In this document: positions 28,455-49,871 of the stretch, in pieces
Layout of the letters: each line of letters begins with the position of its first letter
Numbering within the stretch: the stretch's first letter is position 1
Translations under genes and position numbers: made by a program
Source: a virus
Lineage: Duplodnaviria > Caudoviricetes
IMG/VR virus record: IMGVR_UViG_3300028833_000058
Length of the DNA: 64,000 nucleotides
Strand: one strand, 5' to 3'
The notes under the pieces: generated by a model
Told to the model about the DNA's origin: nothing
Databases searched by the model: none
What the model saw: the letters and a program-made list of their open reading frames with translations, nothing else

Positions 28455-28486
28455 TAAAAAAAAGACACATCTAAGAATGTGTCTTT
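28455..28486 (-). terminator. intrinsic terminator of 28517..28978
   Basis: AAAGACACAT-N6-ATGTGTCTTT hairpin with T tract on minus strand. Confidence 0.8.
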
Positions 28487-28516
28487 CAAATTTGTTATAA
28501 TTAACTCGATTAAGGT

Positions 28517-28978
28517 TTATTTCCAGAATCCAAACAATCTACCAAAAAATGATGTCTTCTTATCAATATACCGTTTCGCATTTGATACAGCTTCATTGAG
28601 TTTTTTGTATTCTTCTGTCATTTTAGAATAAATTTGCTTAGCCTGTCTCATGTCTTCATTGACCAAACCCATTTTACCTGAAGCAGCTTTCAATGAAGCA
28701 ATCATCTGCTTTTTGTTGTTATCTCTGTCTCTAAGATTTTCGTTATTTTTATAAGCTTTCTCTGTTTCATTGACTATTGCTATTGCTTCTTTTATGTTTT
28801 TAAGGGCACTCTCACATTTAGCATCAAATGCACTAAGTTGAGCCTTTAACCCGTCTGACTTAATGTTAGCAACTGATGATATAATATCGTTGAAAGAAGC
28901 TTCTTCTAACGATTGTTTGTCTTCATTTAAAGTTGATTCGTCAATCAATTTTAAAACTTCATTTTGTAAATTTGCCAT
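28517..28978 (-). CDS. coiled-coil protein, putative internal head protein with C-terminal amphipathic helix
   Basis: late-type motif CAGTTCTATATAAG at 29018-29031; leader with LIDE/LNE/LEE sites; ends FFGRLFGFWK. Confidence 0.55.
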   Translation of the reverse strand: MANLQNEVLKLIDESTLNEDKQSLEEASFNDIISSVANIKSDGLKAQLSAFDAKCESALKNIKEAIAIVNETEKAYKNNENLRDRDNNKKQMIASLKAASGKMGLVNEDMRQAKQIYSKMTEEYKKLNEAVSNAKRYIDKKTSFFGRLFGFWK

Positions 28979-29048
28979 TTGTATATATACCTTTAATTAT
29001 AATTAGAAACGTTTCTACTTATATAGAACTGTTTTGATTAGTTAATCT

Positions 29049-30941
29049 TTACGATTCACCAACTACTTTTTCTTTTTTACCATTAACTATGTTAGCAATT
29101 TCTTTTGCAGCAAGTTCAAATCCTTCTTTCATTGACTTGTCATCAAATCCGTCCCAACCATAATAAGGTTCACTGATAGAAAATGCTCCGTATTCACCAT
29201 CATCAGCTTCACATTTTCCATTTAGTACTCTCCATAGATACAACCAGTCTTCATTATCATATCCACGAGTATCATCATCCTCGTAATCATCATACCAATT
29301 TAACCACCATTGGTCAGCCATCGGTGGAATCTCTAAAGGTTTTTTATTTGGTAACTCCTTTTTCTTCATTTCTTTGTCATAGCTTGGTACATCTTCGTAT
29401 ATACCAGTTTCTATCATGAAGAGTATTTTAAACAAATCATCCTTAGATACAGAAAATTCAGCTGAATATCCATCTGGTTCTTCGTATATTTCACGACCAG
29501 TTATAGGTATTTCTTCTTCTAAATCTTTCAAAACATCATCGTGTGCTTCTTGTTCTGTACCATATCTCTTACAATCGTGTAAAAAGGATAAAAGACCAAT
29601 ACCATCATAAAAATCATTTTGTACTATATTAACAATTTCTTCTGGAACATTATTTTCATTTTTATCGTCATATTGGCCTGTATAAATAGCTACTATTCTA
29701 TCCCAATTATATTTATCCTTAATGCCATATTTTTCAGCAACTTCATTCCAATCTGATTCACAACCGTTCCAATTGTTTATGTCATCTTCGTAATAATAAT
29801 CCCAATCCGTACTGAAAGTTAAAATCTCACACATTGTCTTATTACTGATACATTCTCTTGCTCCGTTGTTGTAAATCTCCTTACCAAGCTCATCTATATC
29901 CATTATACCAATCACTTTATCATCTTCAATCTTCAGTTTGTCTGGATTTACATAGTGATAATAAAGTATTTCTTTTTCAAGGAGTTGTGGGTTTTGTAAA
30001 CAATTGTTAAATTTTTGTTTTACGTTTTCAAATCTATCAACTAAATTGTTGTATTTAGTTATACTTCTTATTTCTTCATCAAGTTCCTTGTCAATCGGAT
30101 ATTTTTTAAACTTGTATTCATATAAAAATTTAGCGACATCTGGACAGTCATCTGTGAATTTGTCCATATCAATTCTATTGTCACGTTCATCCATAAATTG
30201 TCTTGATTCAAAATGAAATTGATACAAACTTCCGTCTTCTTTGTTCAAAAGAATGTAATACTCACCACCGTAATCGTTTAAGTAACTGTTATAATAAGTA
30301 CCACCACTTGAAGTAGTACACCAGTTTGTGTATTCACCAAACGGTTTAGATGACTCAAAAGTTGTTGGAATACCAATTACCCATTTGTCGTCTTCATAAA
30401 TCTTTTCTAATCCTTTTGGTTCACATTCTTTGAATACATTGTATCTCTCAAATGCCTTTTCATCAGTAGGAACACCTTTTTCTTTATGTTGTTGTATAGC
30501 TGTGTATAGCTCTGGTATACTATTGAAGTCGTCTAAAGGTTTACCGATTTGATTTTTTAAAACATCATATTGCTTTAACAAACTTGGAAGTTTCTCAGCA
30601 TCTTCCCAAGGCGTAGATGGTAACAATTCTGGTTTCTCAATTGGTTGATTTGTTTTAGGGTTTATACCATTGTTTTTAGCCATAAACTCCTTATAATCAG
30701 CCATTCTTTCAGCATTTTTGAAATTGTTGTAAAACAGCCTGATAATCCATTTACCATATTTACCTAATTGGTCACCACCTTTATAAGTTGGGTCCAATGC
30801 TATCAGCTCTTTTACCTTTTCTTCTGGCATCTTCGGAAACTGTTTAGCAACCTCATGTATACCTTCAGCAAAGTAATGGTATTCTTTTTTAAAGAGGTTA
30901 GATTCACATAAAATATTGTTAACTAAATTCTTAAATTTCAT
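29049..30941 (-). CDS. 630-aa acidic protein, putative internal head protein with PcfJ-like (TxWC) domain
   Basis: leader MKFKNLVNNILCE; IYEDDKWVIGIPTTFESS...TNWCTT...YQFHFES motif; late-type motif at 30987-31001. Confidence 0.55.
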   Translation of the reverse strand: MKFKNLVNNILCESNLFKKEYHYFAEGIHEVAKQFPKMPEEKVKELIALDPTYKGGDQLGKYGKWIIRLFYNNFKNAERMADYKEFMAKNNGINPKTNQPIEKPELLPSTPWEDAEKLPSLLKQYDVLKNQIGKPLDDFNSIPELYTAIQQHKEKGVPTDEKAFERYNVFKECEPKGLEKIYEDDKWVIGIPTTFESSKPFGEYTNWCTTSSGGTYYNSYLNDYGGEYYILLNKEDGSLYQFHFESRQFMDERDNRIDMDKFTDDCPDVAKFLYEYKFKKYPIDKELDEEIRSITKYNNLVDRFENVKQKFNNCLQNPQLLEKEILYYHYVNPDKLKIEDDKVIGIMDIDELGKEIYNNGARECISNKTMCEILTFSTDWDYYYEDDINNWNGCESDWNEVAEKYGIKDKYNWDRIVAIYTGQYDDKNENNVPEEIVNIVQNDFYDGIGLLSFLHDCKRYGTEQEAHDDVLKDLEEEIPITGREIYEEPDGYSAEFSVSKDDLFKILFMIETGIYEDVPSYDKEMKKKELPNKKPLEIPPMADQWWLNWYDDYEDDDTRGYDNEDWLYLWRVLNGKCEADDGEYGAFSISEPYYGWDGFDDKSMKEGFELAAKEIANIVNGKKEKVVGES

Positions 30942-31046
30942 ATTATGATTTCACTATTCAATGTCTTTACAATCAAAAAACGTTTATAGTGTATAGAACT
31001 ATTTTAGTTAACATGTCCTTAGCCAAAGTGTTCTGTTAGGTGTAAT

Positions 31047-31793
31047 TTATCTAACAACTTTTTTATTTAAATTTTTTGTCTTTTCTAATTCATTGGTAGC
31101 GTTGTTGTAGATTTCATCAGGGTTTACACCTTCTATATCTTTTCTATTCGCATAATATATTTTTGACGTGTTATAATCTTTCACTAAAGCGGTTTCTTGC
31201 TTGAATTCTTTACAAACCTCAGTGGCAAACAACAATAAAAATTCAGATGACATTCCAGAAAATTCAAGAGTAATAGAAGATTCGTCAAATATCTCCCCAT
31301 TCTCACCCTGGTATCTACCTTTAAAACCATGACCAAACGTATAACCACCTAAATATTCTTTGTCTCCATATTCGGTGTTCCATTTTTTATATATGTTGGC
31401 TAACTTTTTGTTTTTCATTAAATTGTTTATTGTGGTGTAATATATTGACTTTAATTTTTTAACTAACCAATTCTTATCGTTCAAAACAGAATTAACATTA
31501 GTTGAGAACACAATCATACCACCAGCGTAATCATTTAGACCCCATTGAAATTCAGAATCTTGTACACCTTCAACCAAAAAGAATTCACATTTTTTACCAT
31601 GCTCAAACGCATTACGATTGAGTACAATGTCATGTATCTCGTAACCTTTTGTCAAATAACTACCAGATGGTTCTATGTCACCATTTCTTGAAAAATGCTC
31701 AACTATACCTAATTTGTAATCACTAGATTCTTCAATTAGTTTTAACGTAGTATAATTAAATAAAGTATCTTTGACAATATCTCTAAATTTCAT
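31047..31793 (-). CDS. leader-tagged protein with SAM-lyase/DUF3574-like C-terminal domain
   Basis: leader MKFRDIVKDTL...LIEE; GRY...GEIFDESSITLE...ATEVCKEFKQETALV resembles the G(Y/W)..E.S....A.....F.QE.VL pattern of phage SAM lyases. Confidence 0.5.
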   Translation of the reverse strand: MKFRDIVKDTLFNYTTLKLIEESSDYKLGIVEHFSRNGDIEPSGSYLTKGYEIHDIVLNRNAFEHGKKCEFFLVEGVQDSEFQWGLNDYAGGMIVFSTNVNSVLNDKNWLVKKLKSIYYTTINNLMKNKKLANIYKKWNTEYGDKEYLGGYTFGHGFKGRYQGENGEIFDESSITLEFSGMSSEFLLLFATEVCKEFKQETALVKDYNTSKIYYANRKDIEGVNPDEIYNNATNELEKTKNLNKKVVR

Positions 31794-31864
31794 ATCAAAA
31801 TCCTTTCTTTATATCTATGTGAATATTATACACCATATTTTCTTGAAAGTCAAGTGAAAATCAT

Positions 31865-32179
31865 TTATTCTTTAGAACTTAAATAAATTTCTTGTTTATA
31901 GTGTCTATGGTTTTTCATATATTCTCTCTGTTTTTCTTTGGTATAATATTTCATTGAACCACCTCTTTCTTGTCTGCATTGTAAATTTCTATCGTGCTTA
32001 TCTGGGTCCCATATAAACTGAATCGTTCTTCTACTCACATTAAATTTCCTCGCACATTCACGTTGAGACATTGTACCTTTTAATGCAGCTATTTCATCCT
32101 TCTGTTTATCAGTTAACTTTCTTCTTCTGTCTTTAGAAGTACCAGCTAACTTTACAAGTTTTTCAGATTTATATGGCAT
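31865..32179 (-). CDS. HTH DNA-binding protein
   Basis: KLTDKQKDEI...SQRECARKFNVSRRTIQFI. Confidence 0.75.
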   Translation of the reverse strand: MPYKSEKLVKLAGTSKDRRRKLTDKQKDEIAALKGTMSQRECARKFNVSRRTIQFIWDPDKHDRNLQCRQERGGSMKYYTKEKQREYMKNHRHYKQEIYLSSKE

Positions 32180-32498
32180 TGTTTTCCTCCAAGTCTGCTT
32201 TTAACTTAATTAACTCTTGATATAATTCACTCAGGGTTAAATTTTTATCATTAGTCATATTAATTCTACCTAAATGTTTATACCAAGTGATTAATAAACC
32301 AGTTTCCGTATCTAAAATATAAAAGTCATCATAATGCCTTGTTAAGATAAACTTATAACTCTGGTAACCCTCATATCTTGTCATCAAATCAAAAATTTTA
32401 TCATATTGATTATTTGTGAATACTTCATTGAATACGTTACAAAAATCTTGTCTTTCAAAATGGTATTGTTTCATGGTATCAAACATTTTTACATCTCC

Positions 32499-33806
32499 TT
32501 AAAATCCATTCTTTTCTCTATCAACGATGTATGGATAAACTGTATTTTTCATTTTCAGCGGTGGTACAAACTCTGGATGGTCTACAATCAACCAAACTAC
32601 AGGATAAGGACACGTTGTTTCTTCATCACCATTCACTGGGTCATAACCATCTGTAAAACAAACAAATACATCTGGCCTATCTTTTTTGTAATATTCGTTC
32701 ATGAATTCGAAATTTTTTCTCATGTCATTACCACCGTCAGACATGATTTTAAAATCTTTAATTTTATTCTTATTTGTTTTCGTACATCTGACAAGACTTT
32801 CTTTATACACTTCAGAACCGCAACACCAAACGTCAATTGTAAAATTATTAAAAGCAGATAGAATTGTGTACACATGGTCAAGCATAGACTGTAACTCTGC
32901 ATTACTAATTGAACCAGAAGTGTCAACAGCTAAAGCTATATGAATACACGGTGATACATTGCAAGAAGGGAGTATTAAACCATTAGCTATACCTGCACGA
33001 GATGGTCTATTCCAAGTGTAATTTTCTTTAATCCAACTTCTTATATATTTTGTCAATGCACTCTTCCAATTGAACGGCAAAGGTTTCATAACATGCTTTA
33101 TAAACCTGTCAATAGATGAATTAGAAACAGAGTTATTCTTACTACCGAAGACTTCTGATATCACTTGTGCTAAATCACTTTTTATCAAATCATCATCAAT
33201 TGAAATATGTTTATCTAAATGAAAACCAAAAGGAGTTGATTCTACTTGTAAAATTATTTTATCAGCGTTTTTTTCAAGTTCGTGATATATCTCTTCTGCT
33301 GTCATTTCTTTATATTTTTCTTCATATAAGGCAGAAGGTAAGATTCTTCCGATAGGTTTATTGGTATAATCTTCTCTATTGTTCACAAGTAAAGAGTTTA
33401 TGGCATAGTCTGTAGCAATATTCCATAGTTTCAACCTTGATTCATTTTCTAAATCGTTGATTCGATATTCATTATGTAAACCTAAATTTTCTGCTCTATC
33501 CATTGTAGCTGTTAACAAGTGCATTAACTCATGACAAAAGATAAATATCATTTCTTCTTTACCAATTGAACAGTTTTTACTTTCACCTGTTAGACTATTA
33601 ACTCTTGTTGGCTTATCATTTAATTCTGCTATAAGTCTATCGTTGATATAGATTGTTTTACCATTAGTACAAGCTATACAATCCCCAAGGTCTTTATAAT
33701 TGTAACCTATTCTAATAAGAAACTGAGCGTATGTAGAGAAGTTTAAAACAAGCTTCAATATCGCATCATCTACTATGTCATGTACTTTTTCGATATCTAA
33801 TGACAT
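32499..33806 (-). CDS. DUF2201-type metallopeptidase-like/VWA protein (pair 1)
   Basis: ACTNG, CHELMH (HExxH), NIATDYAIN, MIDAS VDTSGSI, GGND, FTDG. Confidence 0.88.
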   Translation of the reverse strand: MSLDIEKVHDIVDDAILKLVLNFSTYAQFLIRIGYNYKDLGDCIACTNGKTIYINDRLIAELNDKPTRVNSLTGESKNCSIGKEEMIFIFCHELMHLLTATMDRAENLGLHNEYRINDLENESRLKLWNIATDYAINSLLVNNREDYTNKPIGRILPSALYEEKYKEMTAEEIYHELEKNADKIILQVESTPFGFHLDKHISIDDDLIKSDLAQVISEVFGSKNNSVSNSSIDRFIKHVMKPLPFNWKSALTKYIRSWIKENYTWNRPSRAGIANGLILPSCNVSPCIHIALAVDTSGSISNAELQSMLDHVYTILSAFNNFTIDVWCCGSEVYKESLVRCTKTNKNKIKDFKIMSDGGNDMRKNFEFMNEYYKKDRPDVFVCFTDGYDPVNGDEETTCPYPVVWLIVDHPEFVPPLKMKNTVYPYIVDREKNGF

Positions 33807-33821
33807 AACATTGTCCTTTCT

Positions 33822-35003
33822 TTAATCCTCGATAGCTTTAGTTAATAACAATACAAGTTCTGGTGCATCTGTCCTTGGGTTAAACAAGTCTAAATTACCT
33901 GAGCAACGTTCAGACCTTGACAACTGAATAAGACAAGAAGCTTTTAATTCTTTAGCTGTCAAATTGTTTAAAGCCTTTACATAATTTAAGATATAGCGTC
34001 TGCAGACTCCATCATCTTTTTCACTGATTATGGCGTGTAAACAAGACATTTGTACTGCCCAAAACTGGTCTTGTGATTCGTTTCTAAAAGGTTTACCATC
34101 AACAAGAATTTCATGCCAATCTTGATATTTTTCTTTGTTCTTGATATATTCAAAAAACTTGGAGCTTAAAGCAGAACCTAATCGACCAGTACAATAAGCT
34201 TGCTTTTCTTGCATTGTGAATTTATCATTAGGTAAATTTAATACTTTACCAACAACTTCCCAAGACCTTGGAGTAACAAATACATCTGTAAACAATGTAT
34301 CTTTTAAACTACCAACCTTATTTTCCATGTTAATTTTATCAAATAATAAGGCAGTGTCTTGAGTTTTTAGAAATGACATAACGTCTAAATTACCGTCATT
34401 GTTCATTTCATAATTTAACCAAGAGTTAAAGTCTACCTTAATATTAAAATGACTAAATCTATTTGCCAAAGGTATACTAAAATCAGATACAGTTGCATTG
34501 AAAGCAGGTGGATTAGAAGATGCTATGATTAAATAATTATCTGGTACTTTATAATCACCTAATCTTCTATCTTGGATAAGTTGAAAGGCAGCGTTCAATA
34601 TGGCTGGCTGTCCTTGGTTCATCTCATCAAGGTGAATTACACCACCAGAAAATCTACCATCTTCTGGCCAAACAGAAGGAATACACCAAACTGTTCTCAT
34701 TTGCCCATCCATTCGAGTAGGAAGAGGGACTCCGACTAAATCTACTGGTTCCTTCATAGATAAACGTATATCACAAATGTCTGGATTCCAATTTTTATCT
34801 GATTTACAACGTTGGTTATTCCATTGTATTACAGCTTGACTCTTACCAAACCCAGGTCCGCTCCACTGCATAATCGAATCGTGTATTTCATAAGCAATAT
34901 CATACATACGCTTGATACCAACATTAATAATTTTACCCGAATCGTTAACAACTGGGTCAATGGTAAATTCTGGCATTAAAAATTTTGAAGTTATATCAGA
35001 CAT
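33822..35003 (-). CDS. MoxR-like AAA+ ATPase (pair 1)
   Basis: GPGFGKS, DIRLS, DLVGVP, LDEMNQ, LANRF, TPRSW. Confidence 0.9.
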   Translation of the reverse strand: MSDITSKFLMPEFTIDPVVNDSGKIINVGIKRMYDIAYEIHDSIMQWSGPGFGKSQAVIQWNNQRCKSDKNWNPDICDIRLSMKEPVDLVGVPLPTRMDGQMRTVWCIPSVWPEDGRFSGGVIHLDEMNQGQPAILNAAFQLIQDRRLGDYKVPDNYLIIASSNPPAFNATVSDFSIPLANRFSHFNIKVDFNSWLNYEMNNDGNLDVMSFLKTQDTALLFDKINMENKVGSLKDTLFTDVFVTPRSWEVVGKVLNLPNDKFTMQEKQAYCTGRLGSALSSKFFEYIKNKEKYQDWHEILVDGKPFRNESQDQFWAVQMSCLHAIISEKDDGVCRRYILNYVKALNNLTAKELKASCLIQLSRSERCSGNLDLFNPRTDAPELVLLLTKAIED

Positions 35004-35128
35004 TTAGTTTTCCTTTCTTTCATCTATCAGCGTTCTATTGTTGGCAAAACCACAATATACAATTTACTTCATAGGCTTGTTAATATGTGAGTATTATACT
35101 CCCATATTATAGAAAAGTCAAGTAAAAA

Positions 35129-35491
35129 TTAAATAGCTTGGTTGATTTTTAATAAAGTATATGTTTCCAAAGGGTTAACTCTTTGTTCTGGATTATCAAA
35201 TTCCATTTTAACTCTATAGGTATACAATCTTTGGTTAATTAAGTTAAACCCATATTGTTTATTCAAATGTTCTTTTATGATGTCAAACACTTCTTGTTTT
35301 TCGTTTTGTTTTATTCTAACCCATAATAAAAAATTCAGTCTTGCACCTTGTGTATTCACTATCACTTGAAAAGAGATGTCATGATACCCATTTATAAAGC
35401 CATATGCGTTAAAAACTTTTGTTATTTGTTTTAACACATCTTCACGTAATCCATGACTTATTTCACTAAGTAACTTTTCATTTAAATCCAT
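35129..35491 (-). CDS. hypothetical protein with C-terminal YxLLKI motif
   Basis: own early-type promoter near 35536; ends PLETYTLLKINQAI. Confidence 0.6.
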   Translation of the reverse strand: MDLNEKLLSEISHGLREDVLKQITKVFNAYGFINGYHDISFQVIVNTQGARLNFLLWVRIKQNEKQEVFDIIKEHLNKQYGFNLINQRLYTYRVKMEFDNPEQRVNPLETYTLLKINQAI

Positions 35492-35603
35492 GTTACATCC
35501 CTTTCTTCAAAATGTTTATAACAAGTTATCATAAATGTAAAGTTAAATATAAAAAAATAAGTGCCATTATTGACACTTATTACAGGTTCGCAACCATGAA
35601 CTT

Positions 35604-35906
35604 TTAGAATTTAAATAACTTTGTAATCTTTTCCCAAGTCGTTTTCTTTGGTTGTGGTAGCATCTTCTTTTCATAACATTCTACTTCTAATTCAGTAGGA
35701 AGATGGTCTTTACCAAAGATTTTGTAAAGCTCTGGATATTTTCTTCTGTCAAATATACGACCAGGATAATACTTTATATAACCTTCTGGAACAGCCCCAA
35801 ATACTTCTTTTGTGGTTCCGATTATTTCGGTATCTTCTACTGGGATACCATTTTTAAATACATCATCTCTTTTTCGAGCTTTAATAACTCTTACTAAATA
35901 AGACAT
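35604..35906 (-). CDS. stand-alone phage tail-collar-like domain protein
   Basis: IGTT...GAVPEGYI...GRIFDRRKYPELYKIFG...LP; terminator at 35551-35581; late-like motif at 35944-35959. Confidence 0.65.
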   Translation of the reverse strand: MSYLVRVIKARKRDDVFKNGIPVEDTEIIGTTKEVFGAVPEGYIKYYPGRIFDRRKYPELYKIFGKDHLPTELEVECYEKKMLPQPKKTTWEKITKLFKF

Positions 35907-36001
35907 GGCTAAACTCTTTTGTTCATTAGTAACTGATATATCGCTTACTATAAGAACTTTTATTTTTTAGAGTTTAGCACACGTCTTTGCCTTAAATTAG
36001 A

Positions 36002-36418
36002 CTATTCGAAGTCAGCAAAATTGATTGTGGCTCTACGATTCTTAGCCCATGCTTCTTCGTTATGACCATCGTCTACTGGGTTATCTTTACCATAAGATAC
36101 TGTTTCGATTCTATTGCCATCTACACCTAGTGTTTGTAAATAGTCTGATACAGCATTAGCTCTACGTTCACCAAGACCTAAGTTGTATTCACGAGTTCCA
36201 CGTTCATCACAATAACCAGATACAACAACTAAGTTGTCATCATCTTTAATATCCTTAGCTTGTGCTTCAATTGTTGCAACGGCTTCTGGTTTCAATACTG
36301 AACTATCGAAATCAAAATAAACTGTATCTTCAACCTTTGCACTATCACAATTAGGATTAAAAATTGCACAACCAGACAAAGAAGTCATGATTGCAAATAA
36401 AGTTAAAAGTTTTTTCAT
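36002..36418 (-). CDS. pal: peptidoglycan-associated lipoprotein (OmpA-like domain)
   Basis: lipobox LSG-C; VYFDFDSS, GYCDERGTREYNLGLGERRANAV, VSYGKDNP, AWAKNRRA. Confidence 0.93.
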   Translation of the reverse strand: MKKLLTLFAIMTSLSGCAIFNPNCDSAKVEDTVYFDFDSSVLKPEAVATIEAQAKDIKDDDNLVVVSGYCDERGTREYNLGLGERRANAVSDYLQTLGVDGNRIETVSYGKDNPVDDGHNEEAWAKNRRATINFADFE

Positions 36419-36504
36419 ATTAAAATCTCCATGAATATTTTATTAACAAAAACAAGATAAACTTACAACAATAAAATGTTAAAGTCAATTTTAATGTTTT
36501 CCAC

Positions 36505-36520
36505 TAGTTCTATATAAATA
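36505..36520 (+). promoter_or_regulatory. type copy of putative late promoter TAGTTCTATATAAATA
   Basis: contains T4 late consensus TATAAATA; related copies at 40760 and 40773 (+), 43562 and 43606 (+), 37594 (+), 29018-31 (-), 30987-31001 (-), 35944-59 (-), 951-964 (-). Confidence 0.7.
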
Positions 36521-36545
36521 TAATGTCAAAAAAAAGGTGTAAGTT

Positions 36546-37094
36546 ATGTCTAAGTTTCGGAATTTAATAGAAAATATACTAAAAGAAAAATTGAATTTCT
36601 TAAAAGAAAATAATAATCAAGTGTATCGTACTTATGCAGATGGTCAATATTTTAACGATATAACAGGTAATCTTATGAATAAGCCACGTAGTGGTTTATG
36701 GGGTTGTGTAGACGACAGTTGGAAAGAATGGTGTGACGATAATGACTTTCATTGCGCAAAAGGTTATTACGAGTGGATTCTTAAACCAGGTACAAAAGTT
36801 TTCAAGATAAACAATGTAGATGATTTCATATATCTGTTAAAAAATTATCCAACAAATGATTACGATGGCAAATGTTTTATAGATTTCATGAAAGTGGCTA
36901 AAGATTATGATGCTGTAGAGTTAACACAAGAAGGTAATTCTCAGTTACATTTTAGTATTGAAACAGATGATTCAGAATTACAAGACCCTAAATACATGAT
37001 ATCCTTAACGATGTCATTAAACGCTTGGGATGTACCTAGTATATGTGTATTTAACCCAAGCAAAACTGTCGAAGTCATCAATACTAATTTCTAA
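36546..37094 (+). CDS. leader-tagged protein, possible ADP-ribosyltransferase fold
   Basis: leader MSKFRNLIENILKE; VYR...KPRSGLWGC...WKEWC...IDFMKVAKDYDAV...WDVPSICVFNP. Confidence 0.45.
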   Translation: MSKFRNLIENILKEKLNFLKENNNQVYRTYADGQYFNDITGNLMNKPRSGLWGCVDDSWKEWCDDNDFHCAKGYYEWILKPGTKVFKINNVDDFIYLLKNYPTNDYDGKCFIDFMKVAKDYDAVELTQEGNSQLHFSIETDDSELQDPKYMISLTMSLNAWDVPSICVFNPSKTVEVINTNF

Positions 37095-37125
37095 TTTGAT
37101 AGACATTTAGTTTCTTTGTTTAAAA

Positions 37126-37575
37126 TTAGTAATTGTTATTTATTGTAAATATTTTTTCTCTTTCAAATACAGTATGATTTCCGTCTCCTGCTATATCTCG
37201 ATAAACCCATCCTTCGCTGTCATACGTAAATTTCCAACCCTCTTTTTCTAATTGCTCAATAATTGTACTACTTCTGGCTATATCTTCAACAGTGTCCTTT
37301 ATAAAGGAATTCCAGTTATCAGCAAATTCTGTAGCTTCTTTCTCGCTGTCAAAATAAAAAGTTTCACCAAGTCCATTGACAGCAACCCATTCACCTTTTT
37401 TGTCCGAAAAAAACACGTTTGGTCTTTTCTCTATCATGTATAACCATTCCTTGTGAGGTATATTATTTTCGGGAGCAATCAATCCTGGCTGCTCTGTATA
37501 AACATCCCATTCGTCTAAATCTGGATATCTTTTGCGACATTCTTCTATATGTTTTAATAAATCTTTAACTTTCAT
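37126..37575 (-). CDS. hypothetical early protein
   Basis: AAGGA RBS, early promoter at 37631. Confidence 0.65.
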   Translation of the reverse strand: MKVKDLLKHIEECRKRYPDLDEWDVYTEQPGLIAPENNIPHKEWLYMIEKRPNVFFSDKKGEWVAVNGLGETFYFDSEKEATEFADNWNSFIKDTVEDIARSSTIIEQLEKEGWKFTYDSEGWVYRDIAGDGNHTVFEREKIFTINNNY

Positions 37576-37660
37576 AGATTTCCTTTCAATATTTAGTTCT
37601 ATGTTTATATAGTATCACACGAATTAAAAAAGTAAAGTAAATTTTCGAAAAGGTGCACAG

Positions 37661-38017
37661 ATGAGTCAATTCAGAACAATTGTAGAAAGCATAATCGATG
37701 AAGCAAATTCAAAAGCCAGTATCAAAAACAAAATCTATAAAGCAGTTACTCCATTTACAAATCATATTTACAGAGATGCTTACTGGCAAGGTTATCGTGA
37801 TGTATTGAAAGCCATAGAAGACCTTGGTTTTGATGTTATATCAGGACCATCTAACGACCAATATCACAGAAGTGGTTATACTTCAGATGATAAATCAAAA
37901 CAATGGGATTTAGATATACAAAAAGATGGTATAACAATTTTAAATGGACACATTAACACATATATCGCTAGTGATAGCAATGGCGAGTATTACGATTTAA
38001 CAGTTACACTTTGGTAA
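37661..38017 (+). CDS. leader-tagged small protein, putative internal head protein
   Basis: leader MSQFRTIVESIIDE-A; late-type motif at 37594. Confidence 0.55.
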   Translation: MSQFRTIVESIIDEANSKASIKNKIYKAVTPFTNHIYRDAYWQGYRDVLKAIEDLGFDVISGPSNDQYHRSGYTSDDKSKQWDLDIQKDGITILNGHINTYIASDSNGEYYDLTVTLW

Positions 38018-38050: not shown

Positions 38051-38608
38051 CTATAACTCTTCTCTTGCAAACAGTTCATCTATCGATGGTTCATCGTCAG
38101 TATCGTGTATAATGTCACATATTGTTTCCCAATCGATGCCGTACTTTTTAGATAGGTTCTTTATGACCTCTGCTGTATCTGTTATAAACTCGGATTGAAT
38201 TTGTCTTATCAATTTCTTATAATCGGTATCGATTGTATCTTCTACAAAATTATCGTCAACGTTACCGTTCTTTTTTCTATTAGCCTTGATAGGTTTATAC
38301 TTACACCACTGTAAATTTTCTACTCTGTTGTCACTCTTATCGCCATTTATGTGATTGACCCATGTGTAGTTATGTGGATTAGGAACAAAAGCTTGTGCTA
38401 CTAACACATCTACAAATCTTTTATCTCTTACTCCATGCATCCTGAATTCAACACTACCACGTGCACTTGTAAAATGATATTCAGTAAAGATTTTACCTGT
38501 ACTAGATTTTCTGACTCTACCTTTGTTACTTATCTCATATAAACCATTGTAATCATTGATAGTTTTCCAAATTTCGTCTTCAAAATGTTGTTCAATATTC
38601 ATTATCAA
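38051..38608 (-). CDS. NUMOD4-HNH homing-endonuclease-like protein
   Basis: EIWKTI...YEISNKGRVR; LVAQAFVPNP...VNHINGDKSDNRVENLQW. Confidence 0.88.
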   Translation of the reverse strand: MIMNIEQHFEDEIWKTINDYNGLYEISNKGRVRKSSTGKIFTEYHFTSARGSVEFRMHGVRDKRFVDVLVAQAFVPNPHNYTWVNHINGDKSDNRVENLQWCKYKPIKANRKKNGNVDDNFVEDTIDTDYKKLIRQIQSEFITDTAEVIKNLSKKYGIDWETICDIIHDTDDEPSIDELFAREEL

Positions 38609-40633: not shown

Positions 40634-41004
40634 ATCAACTTACTCCTATTGCTAAAGATTAACTCTAGTCATCTTCATAACAGAAATAACTCTAATAGTA
40701 AAATCTAAAAAACTTATCCACATTTAATTCAAAAACATAAAGAAAATTTCATAACTAAATAGTTCTACAAAATAGTTCTACATAAATACATAACAATGAA
40801 CATTATGACTATTCTGGAGTTCTTTGGCTAATCTGTGACAGATATTCACGAAACAGCCGTTATATATAAGAGAAACATAAACATTATATATAAAAAACCA
40901 AAAAAGAGCGGATACATAGGGACTTTATGAGAAATAGACAGCTTGTTTAGAACCTATTGCTCAAAATAAACGTTAAAATATATAATATAAAGGAAAATAA
41001 ACTA

Positions 41005-42591
41005 ATGTCTATATTAACAAAGAAAATTGAGAATGAAGGTTTGGCTGCTAAAGCTCGTTCTCAGAAAATCAATGCAGGTTTAGCTCATGCAGCTACTGTA
41101 TTGCACGAATCCAGCTTAGGTCGTAGATGCCCTAACTTGGTAAAAATGATTGAATCAGAAGACCGTGACGCTCGTTATCAAGCTGCTACTATGGTTCAAT
41201 TAATGGAAAACACAGCTGATTACGTTCTCAATCAAGACCACGTACAGTTATTCACAGAAGCTGACGCTTATGGTAACACTGCTTCTACTTCTGCTGTATC
41301 ATTGTTAAGTCCTGGTGTAGCCAGCTTAACTCCTCGTGTTGTCGACATAGTTAACGTCTTCTACCCAATGATGATTGCAAATTATATTGCGGATATTCAA
41401 GCACTTGACAGACAATCTGGTCAAATTTTCGTAATTAAGACTCGTTACTCTCAAGACCAAGGTGAAGGTGCTACTGAAATTAAAGCTGGTGACATCGTAT
41501 TTGAAAAACCGACTGATGGTAACTACTCTTCTGAAATGATGAGCTGGGAAGCTAAAGAAATCGGTACTGGTACAATCACTTTAGCTGCTCGTTCTGATTT
41601 AGCTGCTGACGCTACTGTTAAAATCCGTGCTGGTTCTTTCATCGTTCGTATTGAAGGTAAAGAAGTTGCTCGTGACTATGGTAACGGTGCTGCTGATACT
41701 GAAGGCAAGAACGATGGTAACTATGGCATCTTCGGTCGTGGCGTTTCTGGTCACATCAATGCTCAAGATGGTTCTGGTGAAATTGTATTCGATACAACAA
41801 TCTTTGCTAGTGCTATTGCAGACGGTGTTAAAGTATCTCTCGAAGCTGCTTATGATACAGAAACTGACGTTGATTTGATTCGTAAGATTCAATTCGATAT
41901 TCCTAACCAACCGATTTTAGCTAAAGAACACCCATTAATGAGTTCTTACTCTGTTGCTGCTGGTTTGGTAATGAACGCTCACTTAGCTATTGATACTGAT
42001 GAATTGATTGCTAACCAATTAGCTGGTACAATTCGTTGGGAAAGAGATTTAACTTTGATTAAATTGTTAAATGACAGTGCTAAGTTAAATACTTCATTAA
42101 CATTCGACTGCTCTGGTAACGGTGAAAACTTAACATTACAACAAAGATATAGCTCTTATTCTACAGTTATCTCTTCAGCTCGTGGTTTAATCCAAGAGGC
42201 TGCTGGTCGTGGTACTGTTGAATGGATGGTTGTAAGTGCTACTCAGGGTCTTCCGATTGTAGAACAAATCGAAGGCTTCAAGGCTGCTCCTGAATCTAAA
42301 AAGCCAATTGGTCCGTACTTAGCTGGTACATTACGTGATGGCACAATCAGTGTTATCGCTGTTCCTTATACAGCTACATTACCTGCTGACCAAGTAATCT
42401 TTGGTTTCAAAGGTTTCCAACTTGGTGATAGTTCTGTAGTTTTGGCTGAGTGGGTTCCGTTGTACTTCACTCCAACCTTCCAAGCTCCGAACTTGAAGAA
42501 CCATCGTGGTGCTTTATCTTTCTACGATTTGTTCTTGAACAAGCCAGAATATATGGTTAAAGGTGCTATTGCTAACTTCAACCAACAGTAA
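41005..42591 (+). CDS. major capsid protein, T4 gp23-like
   Basis: ATG 41005 after AAGGAAA; LMEN...LFTE-A propeptide-like region, P..IA..IADIQAL...SGQIF.I.TRY, YAPYVPL-like AEWVPLY; strongly biased codon usage; tandem late-type motifs upstream; strong terminator. Confidence 0.88.
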   Translation: MSILTKKIENEGLAAKARSQKINAGLAHAATVLHESSLGRRCPNLVKMIESEDRDARYQAATMVQLMENTADYVLNQDHVQLFTEADAYGNTASTSAVSLLSPGVASLTPRVVDIVNVFYPMMIANYIADIQALDRQSGQIFVIKTRYSQDQGEGATEIKAGDIVFEKPTDGNYSSEMMSWEAKEIGTGTITLAARSDLAADATVKIRAGSFIVRIEGKEVARDYGNGAADTEGKNDGNYGIFGRGVSGHINAQDGSGEIVFDTTIFASAIADGVKVSLEAAYDTETDVDLIRKIQFDIPNQPILAKEHPLMSSYSVAAGLVMNAHLAIDTDELIANQLAGTIRWERDLTLIKLLNDSAKLNTSLTFDCSGNGENLTLQQRYSSYSTVISSARGLIQEAAGRGTVEWMVVSATQGLPIVEQIEGFKAAPESKKPIGPYLAGTLRDGTISVIAVPYTATLPADQVIFGFKGFQLGDSSVVLAEWVPLYFTPTFQAPNLKNHRGALSFYDLFLNKPEYMVKGAIANFNQQ

Positions 42592-43498: not shown

Positions 43499-43644
43499 GA
43501 ATGTTTATATCATGTTTTTTTCATTTGTCAAGTAGTTTTTCATCAATGGTGCTCATAAAAGTAGTTCTATATAACAGATGAATTAACTGCGCTGGTTCAT
43601 CCGAATAGTTCTTATAAGCGTGTTTTAAATAAGGAATGATTGTT

Positions 43645-44022
43645 ATGGAAAGAATCGTTAAAGAATGTATCGCTGCTGGTATAGTAGTATCTGAAAAAGA
43701 CGAAGCAGGTAAACTCGTAAAAGAAATTGCTGCTACTGTTTATGAAGAGAAAATTATCAACGATGAATCTGCTTCTAGTTCTGCCGCTGAAGGTAAAAAA
43801 TCTGTTGTATTAAAATACAAAGATATGGCTTATGCAGAAGATATTGTTGCTCCTCTTGGCTTCGATGAAATTGCTGGTGACGCTGAATTAGTAGTTCCTG
43901 GTATCGGTGGCCATAAAGACGTTACATTAGCTGCACCTGTTGTTGTTAAATATTCAAAGACTAAATCTTTTGAACGTAATGGTAACACAGTTGTATTCGC
44001 TTCTTTACGTTATGATATGTAA
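43645..44022 (+). CDS. highly expressed late protein, possible capsid decoration/virion protein
   Basis: two late-type motifs upstream, AAGGA RBS, capsid-like codon bias, own terminator. Confidence 0.5.
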   Translation: MERIVKECIAAGIVVSEKDEAGKLVKEIAATVYEEKIINDESASSSAAEGKKSVVLKYKDMAYAEDIVAPLGFDEIAGDAELVVPGIGGHKDVTLAAPVVVKYSKTKSFERNGNTVVFASLRYDM

Positions 44023-46513: not shown

Positions 46514-49500
46514 TTAAACTTTCTTATTTGAAATCTTTTCTTTATTATCAATTAATTTTTTAAATATGTGTCGCATTAAATCATGGTTCAGTTCTTTGTC
46601 TGTGGCCCAGGACTTAATGTGAGCCTTAATATATTCCTTTTCTTCTACTGTTAAGTCTAAGTTTTCAATCTCCTTTTTCATCATTCCCTGTAGTTTCTCA
46701 GCGTTGGACGTAATGTCCTTCTCATTGATTGCGTCACCAGTCAGTTCAAATAACTCATCGAAGAATTGTTCCGTAACTTTATGATGACTGTTAATATATA
46801 TTTCTTTAAGTTCTTGTTCTGATTTCATATCCTTTCCTTCTGTTATTTTCTCCATTTCCTGGAACCTCTCTTGATGAGATGGTTCGCTTTTCTTACACTA
46901 ATTAATCTAAATGACATTTGTTTCTCCTTTCATATATGTTAAAGTTAATAATGTAGTCTCTTAAAAAAGTAAAGTCAAATTAGTACAATTATCACAACTG
47001 TTCTGATTTAGGCTGCACAATTTCAATGTTATAATATTTCATCAGTGAAAGAAAAGAAGATACAAACGCTTCGTTATTTTCACCAGAGAAATATCTAGGG
47101 TCATAATTCATATATTCAACGAATCTTACAATCCTATCTACTTCAAACGATTTGTCATCAGCATCAGGATGTTCACTGTAATATTTACTTCCTTCTGATT
47201 CAGGGTCATTAAAAATAAATAACTTGCCAGATTCTATTTGGCCGTATCTATTCATTTTAATTTTTAGCAGCATACCACCGTTGTTGTTATCCTGAGTGTC
47301 ATTAATCCACTTCATAACCTTTTCAGGCGTTGCTTTACCTTCAAACGGTACCTCATATTCTTTTCCGTTTAATAGATACCCTTTACTCAATCTTTCAGGA
47401 AATTTAATTCCCTCATCGCAATCACAGAAATAAGTGTTAACAAACATCATTATATCAAGTAACTGCATCTTACCAATTCCCCATTGGTTGTGATATGAAC
47501 CAACGTAAGTCTTCTTGACATCTTTACCAGTGTCATAATCACGTTGTGGTTTAGTTACCTCTATCACTAATTGTGTTCTTTGTCCCATTGTTATTCTCCT
47601 TCAATTATTTTTGTGATATCTGTTTTAACTTTTTTAAGCACATTCACTTTATCTTCAAGCGTAGGTGCTTTGATTATCCAAGATGTTGAACCACTGAACA
47701 CTACGTTGCTATGGTTACTTGAAAGATGTAATACAAGATAATCAGGGTCATTGTGTAACCAAAAATGTAACTTCATACCTCTATCATCACATCTTAAACC
47801 AAGTTCGCTTTCGTGGATGTAAGATTTGTTCTTATCAAAGTAAGCATAAATCTTGCTAAGCTTACTTATGTTACCAGTTTTCAATAAATCAAAACTCATT
47901 GAGCGATGGCGTTTGCAATATGTTTCAAGTTCTTGTGTCTTGTTTTCTTTTTCTTTTTCTAAACTATAAAGCTTAAGTCTTGCTTTTGATTCTTCACGCT
48001 CATACTTTTCAAAACGTGTTAATGGCTTTTTACTCATTGTCATTCTCCTTTCGTCAATCTGTTGAAATTATGATATCAAGAATCCCACTAAAAGTAAAGT
48101 GAGATTCTTACAATTAATTCCTAAGTCATTAAAATGGAATAATAAAATGATTTGTAATTAATTCAATGAGGTCATCTCCAAAGTTGACATCAAACTCATC
48201 ACATTTGAACTCATCATCCATGAGAACACCACCGTCTGAATCTAAAGTACACTCATCAATTTTATTACCATTCAAATCTTTGACTTCAACATGATAAATG
48301 TCTTCCTCGTCATTATCTCTATAACAAAAGACATTGTACGTTATCATTGTTTTAGTGTCATAGATTCTAAATTGAACCTCCTCTAAAGTAACTGTTTCAC
48401 GTTCAATGCTACCACAAGCCATTATCTTTAATCTATCGGACATTCTTCTTCTCCATTCAAATTGATTACATTACCTAATTGCTTTCCGTCTTTGTTATAT
48501 ACTTTTGATATACCACAAAACGTTAATGCAAAGTCCTCATTCCAAGTAGTACCGCAATCTGCACATTCGCAAGGATAGCTCATAACATCATCATTTAAGT
48601 CTGAGCTTCCATAATTGACCATACTTGAACCACATTTAGGACAAGTACATTCTTTAACTATCAATTTCTTTTTCATTTCCTTTCTCCTTTCTAAAACGGA
48701 TTTTTATATACGATTTTAAAATCCGTTAGTTTAAAACCATTTTCTAAAATCCAATTATTAGCGGTTGTTCTTGCACTGTATCCTTTCGGGATTTTAAAAC
48801 CGCAAACTATTTCACCTGTTTTTATATTTTTAAGCCAAAACTTCATTTTTCTTTATCCTTTCTCATCTGTTGAATCTTTTTGGTTGTATCAGTTATAAAC
48901 CCGTAAGTTGAGTTCCAAAAGATTCCCTCTTTGCTAATTACAACGACACAAGCTCCAACAGACCGTAACTTTTCAGCTCCTGCTTCTGTTATTGCTACAA
49001 TCTCATCATCAAGTAACTGTTCTTGTAAATACTGCATAGATGATATAGTTCTGTATTTGGTTTCATCATCAAAGATAGATTCATCATCTACCTCATTGCA
49101 ATCTAAATCACAAACTTCATCAGCATAGTATTTTCTTACAGCAACTACTTTACCTGATTGTTTATCAATGATTACTTCATCATCATCATTAAGATTAGCG
49201 TCATAACTACCAATGAACACACTGTTATTTTCGGTATATACTTCATCATAACCTAATGCACCAAATACTCTTGCTACTTCATCTACATCTTTAACTTTAA
49301 TGTAGTCATTTGATGCCACTGAAAATACATAATTAGCCATTGTTATTCTCCTTTGTTTTCTTGTTCTTCTATTACGTCTTTAATCAAATCATCAAAGACA
49401 CAATCCATAGTATTATACAAATCACCGTAATCAGAAAAGTCTAATCTATCAATGACTTCTTGTGCGATATTATTTATCTCATCATCTGTCATCTTTATAT

Positions 49501-49871
49501 CATACTTATTATTACGTTCTATTATACGAATTTTTACATCATCAGTAGACCAAACCCATATCTGTTTATTGAGTTCATCTGCTAAATCGTGTAAAGTGAT
49601 ACCATAAGTATTCATAGCATCAATAATCTCTTTTAGTTTCTCGTTTTTAGTCATCTTCAATCTCCTTTACTAAATCAACACCAAGGCTCAACGTGTGTCT
49701 TGCTCCGCAGTGTGGACATTTAAATTCAAAAGTTTTTGTAAATAAGTTTATGTACAAATCATCATTTATACGAAACACAAACTCTTGCTTACATCTTTGA
49801 CACTTTACAGTAATCTCAGATGTTACAAGTGCTAAAGCTCCATAGTTTATTTCTTCTGCTTTCTTACTCAC
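46514..49871 (-). CDS. run of early hypothetical genes incl. zinc-ribbon proteins 48428..48676 and 49647..49871 and a 51-aa ORF 48691..48846
   Basis: AAAGGAGA RBSs, early promoters at 46968 and 48093; CxxC pairs. Confidence 0.6.

Follow-up and report, generated by a model that had tools for sequence, protein, structure and literature searches.

Mullaney and Black are said to have described, in 1996, that the internal proteins and Alt of bacteriophage T4 carry a capsid-targeting sequence (CTS) removed by gp21. Here we analyze genes with a comparable short N-terminal leader in a 64,000-nt stretch of viral DNA (Caudoviricetes, IMG/VR record IMGVR_UViG_3300028833_000058; hereafter, the window), where they lie within the region from 28517 to 38017.

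The CTS-bearing proteins of T4 are IPI, IPII, IPIII, and Alt, and their CTS is removed by the prohead protease gp21 (PMC9026906, PMC3012670), which cuts after L/I-x-E (PMC9026906). The CTS corresponds to the first 10 residues of IPIII, with residues 4 and 7 acting in targeting, and residues 8 and 10, in processing (PMC9026906). Propeptide-bearing inner-body and ejection proteins have been described in phiKZ, 201phi2-1, and SPN3US (PMC5694885, PMC10052503), and polyvalent proteins, built of ART-PolyVal, DUF4116, and other modules, are predicted to be packaged in virions as early effectors (PMC5512222; Iyer et al., 2017). The principle is known from T4, and there are hints of it in T-even relatives and in giant phages (PMC9026906, PMC5694885); our literature search for CTS-like leaders in uncultured jumbo phages found no paper.

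Leader-Tagged Genes in the Window

Four genes of the window, starting at 36546, 30941, 31793, and 37661 and encoding proteins of 182, 630, 248, and 118 amino acids (aa), respectively, begin alike, as noticed in the initial annotation, and are otherwise unrelated. The N-termini quoted there for these genes and for a fifth one, at 28978, match the sequence, and a regular expression for the common N-terminal pattern retrieves these five open reading frames (ORFs) alone among 877 possible starts. When the N-terminal 13-mers of the 126 window ORFs were all compared with one another, the pairs 30941/36546, 36546/37661, and 30941/37661 score 42, 37, and 30, respectively, all within the top six pairs; internal segments, used as a control, score 30 roughly once.

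To score the 877 candidate starts independently, we used a position-specific scoring matrix (PSSM) built from 14 leaders of other phages (class A, see below), with the window sequence excluded. The four genes occupy ranks one to four (36546 with 29.3, 37661 with 25.2, 30941 with 19.7, and 31793 with 14.4 bits), the next start scores 11.0 bits, and the median is –15.9. BLASTP comparison of the five proteins trimmed of their first 25 residues reveals no similarity among them (best E-value 0.76) or to other proteins of the window. Diverged paralogy or chance, with no system behind the likeness, deserves hardly any credence: other paralogue groups of the window do share similar N-termini, the 28978 protein (see below) being exactly such a family-intrinsic case, but neither the ranking by an independent profile nor the unrelated payloads fit this explanation, and the same is true for the leaderless homologues and for the exchange of leader classes on one payload, described below.

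Identical leader residues are encoded by different codons (Ser by TCT or AGT; Arg by CGG or AGA, or replaced by Lys). Because of these codon-family switches, the likeness is one of proteins and not a DNA repeat, and a DNA-level repeat or recent gene conversion as the source of leaders was rejected on the same grounds. Protein-level conservation also argues against a role of the N-terminus prior to assembly, be it targeting to a membrane or for export, a degron, or a start region that enhances the translation of highly expressed late genes. Such a role, to which we leave a slim chance, would agree with the AT-rich, MSK-type starts and with an amphipathic helix that could lie on a membrane; but a signal-peptide-like hydrophobic core is absent, 14–21 residues are conserved with fixed Glu positions, and other late genes under the same upstream motif have no leader.

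The ORF at 28978 had been initially included in the set as the carrier of a looser leader, but its membership could not be demonstrated. Its N-terminus is conserved in nine out of nine full-length homologues found among 1.8 billion searched representatives; these homologues are 153–428 aa long, with both ends common and the middles variable. It occurs on no other payload in any of the loci or genomes read, and it ranks below the top 14 of the leader profile. We have therefore rejected this ORF as a member, and consider it a late gene adjoining the leader genes, with AGTTCTA upstream.

Relatives and Two Classes of Leaders

The major capsid protein of the window belongs to the T4 Gp23 family (PF07068, E-value 1e-21), and relatives were collected by capsid alignment, yielding 16 IMG/VR loci with capsids 55–73% identical. 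Scanning IMG/VR with single proteins gave only one or two loci per protein, and an exact degenerate DNA pattern of the class A leader was found in IMG/VR on the contig of locus L048 alone, with zero chance matches and no wider spread. Homologues from Logan/ENA include ones that are 96, 88, and 98% identical. Against 50,697 phage records, a megablast search with the region gave zero DNA matches. Gene content in the vicinity of the capsid gene varies widely, and of the 126 window ORFs, homologues of only 8 and 20 are present in the two whole relatives.

Leaders of two classes are observed. Leaders of class A, the kind seen in the window, open with a sequence resembling MSKFRxIVENILKE and reach a second LxE at residue 21; those of class B open with one resembling MNKYIQxFRE, and their LxE end is at residue 17. 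Both classes are present together in L038, L045, L048, and the genome G002 (IMGVR_UViG_3300028888_000051; 227 kb, 93% coding).

Three relatives have arrays of leader genes immediately 5' of the capsid gene, most of these genes being encoded on its strand: six genes in L048 (five of class A and one of class B), five in L038 (two and three), and five in L045 (three and two). A lone leader gene lies upstream of the capsid gene in L034 and G001, and just downstream of it in L042. The majority of leader genes in relatives are headed by the AGTTCTA motif. The modular arrangement of late motif, leader, and payload is genuine and extends throughout the lineage.

Modularity of Leaders and Payloads

A modular layout of promoter, leader, and payload had been proposed from the window sequence, and comparison with relatives bears it out: two payload families have leaderless homologues and the third has lineage-specific leaders, class A and class B leaders replace one another, leaders end at (L/I)xE, and the modules are tied to the late motif and the capsid locus. 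Near homologues of the 182-aa protein have class A leaders, its homologue in G002 has a class B leader, and distant ones begin at the conserved domain; a leaderless gene of this family was verified at the DNA level in L001. In the 248-aa family, the leader is retained in three close homologues, and six clusters (42–44% identity) start 24–36 residues later, at the domain. The 630-aa protein represents a domain family that is widespread in phages; in its more than 100 homologues the domain starts right after hydrophobic-x-Glu, with lineage-specific leaders upstream, several of them class A-like.

Moreover, one and the same payload may carry either leader. The class B gene at 7624 in L038 and the class A gene at 6644 in L048 encode proteins 51% identical from residues 26/19; the window gene 36546 (class A) and the G002 gene 49063 (class B) encode proteins 58% identical; and a third such pair is found within L038 (6724 of class A, 8278 of class B). 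In these swaps the homologous part starts with the residue that follows the invariant Glu of LxE.

Two further modules are seen. An 11-residue spacer ending with I-K-E is present in some proteins and missing from others. A basic 43-residue C-terminal tail, 88–93% identical, follows P-I-E-E on payloads that are 40–60% identical or unrelated (G002 49063–49725, L048 6644–7279, L045 8662–9219, L038 7624–8271, and homologues P0002–P0006); the window 182-aa protein has no such tail. Given the preceding P-I-E-E, the tail may be released as a module of its own, or may act as a C-terminal propeptide, like that of T4 Alt. As the homology breaks, the spacer, and the tail all fall at Glu motifs, the mosaic joints coincide with (L/I)xE sites.

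Candidate Cleavage Sites and the Head Protease

The motif [LI]xE ending at residues 10–26 is found in 26 out of 27 leaders and in 23% of 315 other proteins, the regular expressions used to collect leaders having made no demand for it. The Glu is invariant at residue 21 in class A or residue 17 in class B, and payload homology follows directly. Capsid propeptides of 13 relatives retain LxE near residues 35 and 68, and have hydrophobic-x-E (mostly LxE) just before the conserved mature part.

Head proteases of the S77 family (PF03420, phrog_207) are encoded in the relatives G001 and G002, as the N-terminal part of reading frames of 820–994 residues. The G002 protein has LIE at residues 7–9, and T4 gp21 likewise carries LIE-9 near its start (PMC9026906). 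In this 994-residue acidic protein (G002 179010–181994; L017 8010–10994) the protease constitutes the first ~250 residues, and the long remainder may be a fused scaffold.

The T4 genes ipII and ipIII, as read from the record, both start with MKTYQEFIAE. The initial annotation stated that the leader consensus differs from that of T4; this holds for the sequence itself, but position 4 is still aromatic, and positions 7 and 8 are hydrophobic, as in T4. Class A leaders have F4, L/I7, and I/V8, and class B leaders, Y4 and F8; T4 follows the same pattern, which is too short for statistics.

According to the AlphaFold model of the 182-aa protein, the leader forms a separate helix (residues 3–21) outside the domain. 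An amphipathic helix predicted to stand apart from the domain would also suit an uncleaved docking or oligomerization element of some other late process (a chaperone, tail or baseplate assembly, or a host target) that does not serve as a capsid address; late expression, too, would suit any virion or late function, and a gene pair for a MoxR-like ATPase and a VWA-peptidase lies among the leader genes of the window. This explanation seems improbable to us, as it does not account for the conserved Glu with hydrophobic P3 at the exact joint of exchangeable modules, nor for the capsid-adjacent arrays of L038, L045, and L048. The MoxR/VWA pair is not part of the arrays, and 15 kb separate it from the leader genes in G002.

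The AGTTCTA Motif

The initial annotation placed AGTTCTA(T/C) before four of the five ORFs and the capsid gene. The placement stands, but the core of the motif is AGTTCTA, so that 31793 has the motif as well and all five ORFs carry it: in addition to seven intergenic sites there is an eighth, AGTTCTAA at 31879 on the minus strand, overlooked in the initial annotation, which is located inside the last codons of the upstream ORF, 86 nt 5' of the 31793 start. This variant is common in the relative G002. The number of AGTTCTAY sites in the window (8, with 6.9 expected) shows no excess over chance; it is the placement that is nonrandom, as 7 of the 12 AGTTCTA sites are intergenic in a window that is 90% coding (p = 5e-5).

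Leader and motif co-occur, as initially suggested: within 250 nt upstream, the motif is found for 4 out of 4 leader genes and for 3 out of 122 other ORFs of the window (Fisher p = 3.5e-6), the latter three being 28978, the capsid gene, and a small conserved gene at 43636. The copy at 36506 runs directly into exact TATAAATA, the T4 late –10 sequence, and variants of TATAAATA are seen at other copies. In G002, 43 of 59 AGTTCTA sites are intergenic, mostly 27–120 nt before same-strand gene starts, and the genes headed by them include those encoding the capsid and head protease, a radical-SAM operon, and several large late genes. Judging by its position, AGTTCTA may be a promoter-like element of late and virion genes in this lineage; a literature search for this motif found no paper.

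The radical-SAM (SAM, S-adenosylmethionine) operon under the same late motif suggests another possible role of the leader, that of a recognition peptide for a modifying enzyme, as in ribosomally synthesized and post-translationally modified peptides, with one of the radical-SAM enzymes of the lineage as an example. We find this very hard to believe, since Cys, His, and other typical modification targets are not conserved in the leaders, the operon in G002 is ~130 kb away from the leader genes, and the leader arrays stay with the capsid gene.

Upstream of the capsid gene, AGTTCTA is located 220–270 nt from the ATG in the window (40761–41004) and also in L038, L042, L045, L046, and G002, the spacing having been counted only for relatives with an exact copy found. 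In these phages the capsid gene has a conserved long 5' leader. Two identical near-consensus sigma-70-like promoters (TTGACT, 17 nt, TATAAT) are observed on the minus strand at 31825–31853, before 31793, and at 35093–35121, before the MoxR ATPase gene.

Predicted Functions of Payloads

The model of the 182-aa payload has a predicted local distance difference test (pLDDT) score of 91.7. Nearly all of the 50 VIA matches listed for it are of the ADP-ribosyltransferase (ART), RES, PARP, or DarT type, the best being MbcT (Z 6.9, root-mean-square deviation 3.6, 114 aligned residues), with Z 5.7 for ParT and 5.6 for diphtheria toxin. There was no significant Foldseek match of the model to PDB (E-value > 0.25), and no Pfam match of the payload. 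The invariant residues of the family, R28, E125, and S165, stand in the RES order, which we regard as a lead only. An ART/RES-like fold of this payload is probable according to the model; we keep it at this level because the Z values are middling and the Foldseek search gave nothing significant.

For the 248-aa payload, we see a weak but consistent hint of SAM-lyase likeness. The best VIA rows, obtained from a model with pLDDT 55, are a phage SAM lyase (Z 6.9) and a SAM-AMP lyase (Z 6.6), and the sole PDB profile match is T3 SAM lyase (E-value 0.87); the window protein has no Pfam match at E-value ≤ 0.01. Its homologues P0168, P0169, and P0171 are fused to a separate SAM-lyase domain, PF23780 (E-value 7e-20 for P0168; precomputed assignments for P0169 and P0171).

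Fusions to ART-PolyVal, DUF4116, AAA_33, and LRR_5 domains occur among relatives of the 630-aa payload. The window protein itself has no Pfam domain, so it is a module common with polyvalent proteins but not one of them. An ESM Atlas search with the 118-aa protein gave nothing.

Genomic Context

The window has 31% G+C, and its genes are nearly all small and encoded on the minus strand, the capsid gene being a plus-strand exception. The genes at 36546 and 37661 had been described as plus-strand inserts in a minus-strand region, and minus-strand genes indeed flank both. Coordinates of the features are given in Table 1.

Table 1. Leader genes, candidate regulatory elements, and the capsid gene in the window.
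Feature	Position	Strand	Comment
Terminator-like hairpin	28460..28487	-	Ends the late unit 30941-to-28517
153-aa late protein	28517..28978	-	Leader-like N-terminus kept in its own family only
AGTTCTA motif	29024..29030	-	52 nt before the 28978 start
630-aa candidate cargo protein	29049..30941	-	Class A leader without residue 2 (residues 1-13, ending LCE)
AGTTCTA motif	30994..31000	-	59 nt before the 30941 start
248-aa candidate cargo protein	31047..31793	-	Class A leader and linker, residues 1-22, ending LIEE; C-terminal half weakly SAM-lyase-like
Near-consensus sigma-70-like promoter (11/12)	31825..31853	-	Before 31793
AGTTCTAA motif variant	31873..31879	-	86 nt before the 31793 start; overlaps last codons of the upstream ORF
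AGTTCTA motif	36506..36512	+	40 nt before the 36546 start; runs directly into exact TATAAATA
Class A leader, residues 1-21	36546..36608	+	(L/I)xE ends at residues 9, 14, and 21; residues 3-21 predicted to be a helix apart from the folded domain
182-aa candidate cargo protein	36546..37094	+	Payload from ~residue 25, probable ART/RES-like fold
AGTTCTA motif	37595..37601	+	66 nt before the 37661 start
118-aa candidate cargo protein	37661..38017	+	Class A leader, residues 1-14, ending IDE
Two tandem AGTTCTA motifs	40761..40780	+	~230 nt before the capsid ATG
Major capsid protein (Gp23 family)	41005..42591	+	ATG at 41005 is the true start; propeptide with conserved LxE near residues 35, 68, and 85
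AGTTCTA motif and small conserved late gene (43636-44022) without leader	43563..44022	+	

The leader cassette at 37661 adjoins a homing-endonuclease-like gene with NUMOD4 and HNH_3 domains (38051–38608, minus strand), which could assist cassette movement. An OmpA-family protein with a lipoprotein-type signal (LSGC) is encoded at 36002–36418 on the minus strand, and indicates a Gram-negative (diderm) host.

The pair of the MoxR-like ATPase and the zincin-VWA protein is present in the window in two diverged copies (33822–35003/32499–33806 and 60868–62019/59445–60854); relatives have a single pair, matched by both window copies. A functional tie of the leader genes to the neighboring MoxR/VWA pair was considered and rejected, as the synteny is absent in relatives.

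N-terminal tags of other kinds were also encountered. Five dissimilar-looking ORFs of G002, dispersed over the genome (25242–25655 and 91393–91653 on the minus strand; 96497–96796, 182856–183629, and 223721–224089 on the plus strand), share a second tag, which has Met-Phe, an aromatic part, and then a Lys-rich stretch (KKL..KKEK), and may be a further address or a membrane helix. In another phage lineage, leader-like starts (Met-Arg, Ile/Leu-rich, ending with K-I-L-x-E-S) are found in L003 (8029–9156, plus strand), L004 (7662–9077, plus strand), and neighboring genes, so lineage-specific leaders seem to be widespread.

Discussion

We consider it likely that the shared N-terminus is a T4-style capsid-targeting propeptide on exchangeable cargo. 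Late in infection, an AGTTCTA-type late promoter would drive each cassette; the amphipathic leader helix of 13–22 residues would dock the protein on the scaffold core of the assembling prohead, and the S77 (gp21-type) head protease would cut the leader off at (L/I)xE. The freed payload would then remain in the head and reach the cytoplasm of the next host together with the DNA. Promoter activity is inferred here, as are docking, cleavage, packaging, and injection.

Several observations weigh against this interpretation. The [LI]xE motif is short, with a background of 23%, and the leaders are mutually related, so the 26 of 27 cases are not independent; at the domain boundary of the 30941 protein there is F-A-E and not (L/I)xE. 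The S77 protease is known here from the relatives G001 and G002. The similarity of the leaders to the T4 CTS is too short for statistics, and a close cultured relative is lacking, the closest cultured capsids being 33% identical to the window capsid. It is position by which the promoter role of AGTTCTA is supported, and the near-consensus sigma-70 promoter at 31793 counts against late-only timing, as this gene may be read early too. Finally, Z scores of 5–7 are middling, and the model of the 248-aa protein is poor (pLDDT 55).

A more specific version of the cargo interpretation, which is possible but rather doubtful, would be a two-address system. Cleavable leaders A (21 residues) and B (17 residues), swapped on the same payloads, would then direct them to different docking sites, copy numbers, or release steps; modules, including the 11-residue spacer and the 43-residue tail, would be joined at protease sites; and the capsid-side locus would deliver NAD-using (ART/RES-like) and SAM-lyase-like counter-defense enzymes at DNA entry.

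The payload types suit injected effectors, and by analogy the predicted ART-like 182-aa payload parallels Alt, the head-packaged ART of T4. The ART/RES-like and SAM-lyase-like proteins are concrete candidates for virion-delivered anti-defense enzymes. If the leader is indeed a capsid-targeting propeptide, the head-loading trick of T4 is not restricted to T-even phages, but represents a general, evolvable cargo system of distant uncultured jumbo phages, and the tag becomes a cheap sequence marker of proteins injected before any phage gene is read. Such proteins would form the first line of counter-defense, and the leaders would be of use as novel targeting peptides wherever foreign proteins are to be loaded into phage capsids.

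The leader sequences, the coexistence of two swappable classes, the capsid-side arrays, the AGTTCTA motif, and the payload types are new, and our literature search found no paper on them. The closest parallel is provided by the internal proteins of T4: in both cases a short leader with an aromatic residue 4, hydrophobic residues 7/8, and an (L/I)xE end stands on unrelated proteins of a phage with a Gp23-type capsid, relatives encode the S77 protease, and one cargo is predicted to be ART-like, as Alt. Unlike in T4, the leaders are 17–21 and not 10 residues long, differ in sequence, and contain nested xE sites; leaders of two classes are found side by side and replace each other on the same payload, and the arrays are located beside the capsid gene under AGTTCTA. 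Besides, the phage is only distantly T4-like and is known here from its sequence alone.

Similarly to phiKZ, 201phi2-1, and SPN3US, we deal with a jumbo phage, and in those phages a gp21-like protease cuts after Glu and N-terminal propeptides are thought to target the prohead; however, their propeptides mostly exceed 100 residues and have an S/A-x-E motif, whereas the leaders considered here are short, resemble those of T4, and have L/I at P3. Polyvalent proteins share ART-PolyVal, DUF4116, and other modules with relatives of the 630-aa payload, but the window cargo proteins are small, single- or few-domain, and have a dedicated leader, in contrast to giant multidomain chains. Close relatives of T4 that share its CTS show the same combination of a constant leader and fast-changing payloads, read as arms-race cargo; what distinguishes the system described here is a far-removed uncultured lineage with its own leaders, multi-module payloads, and payload families that also occur leaderless in other phages.

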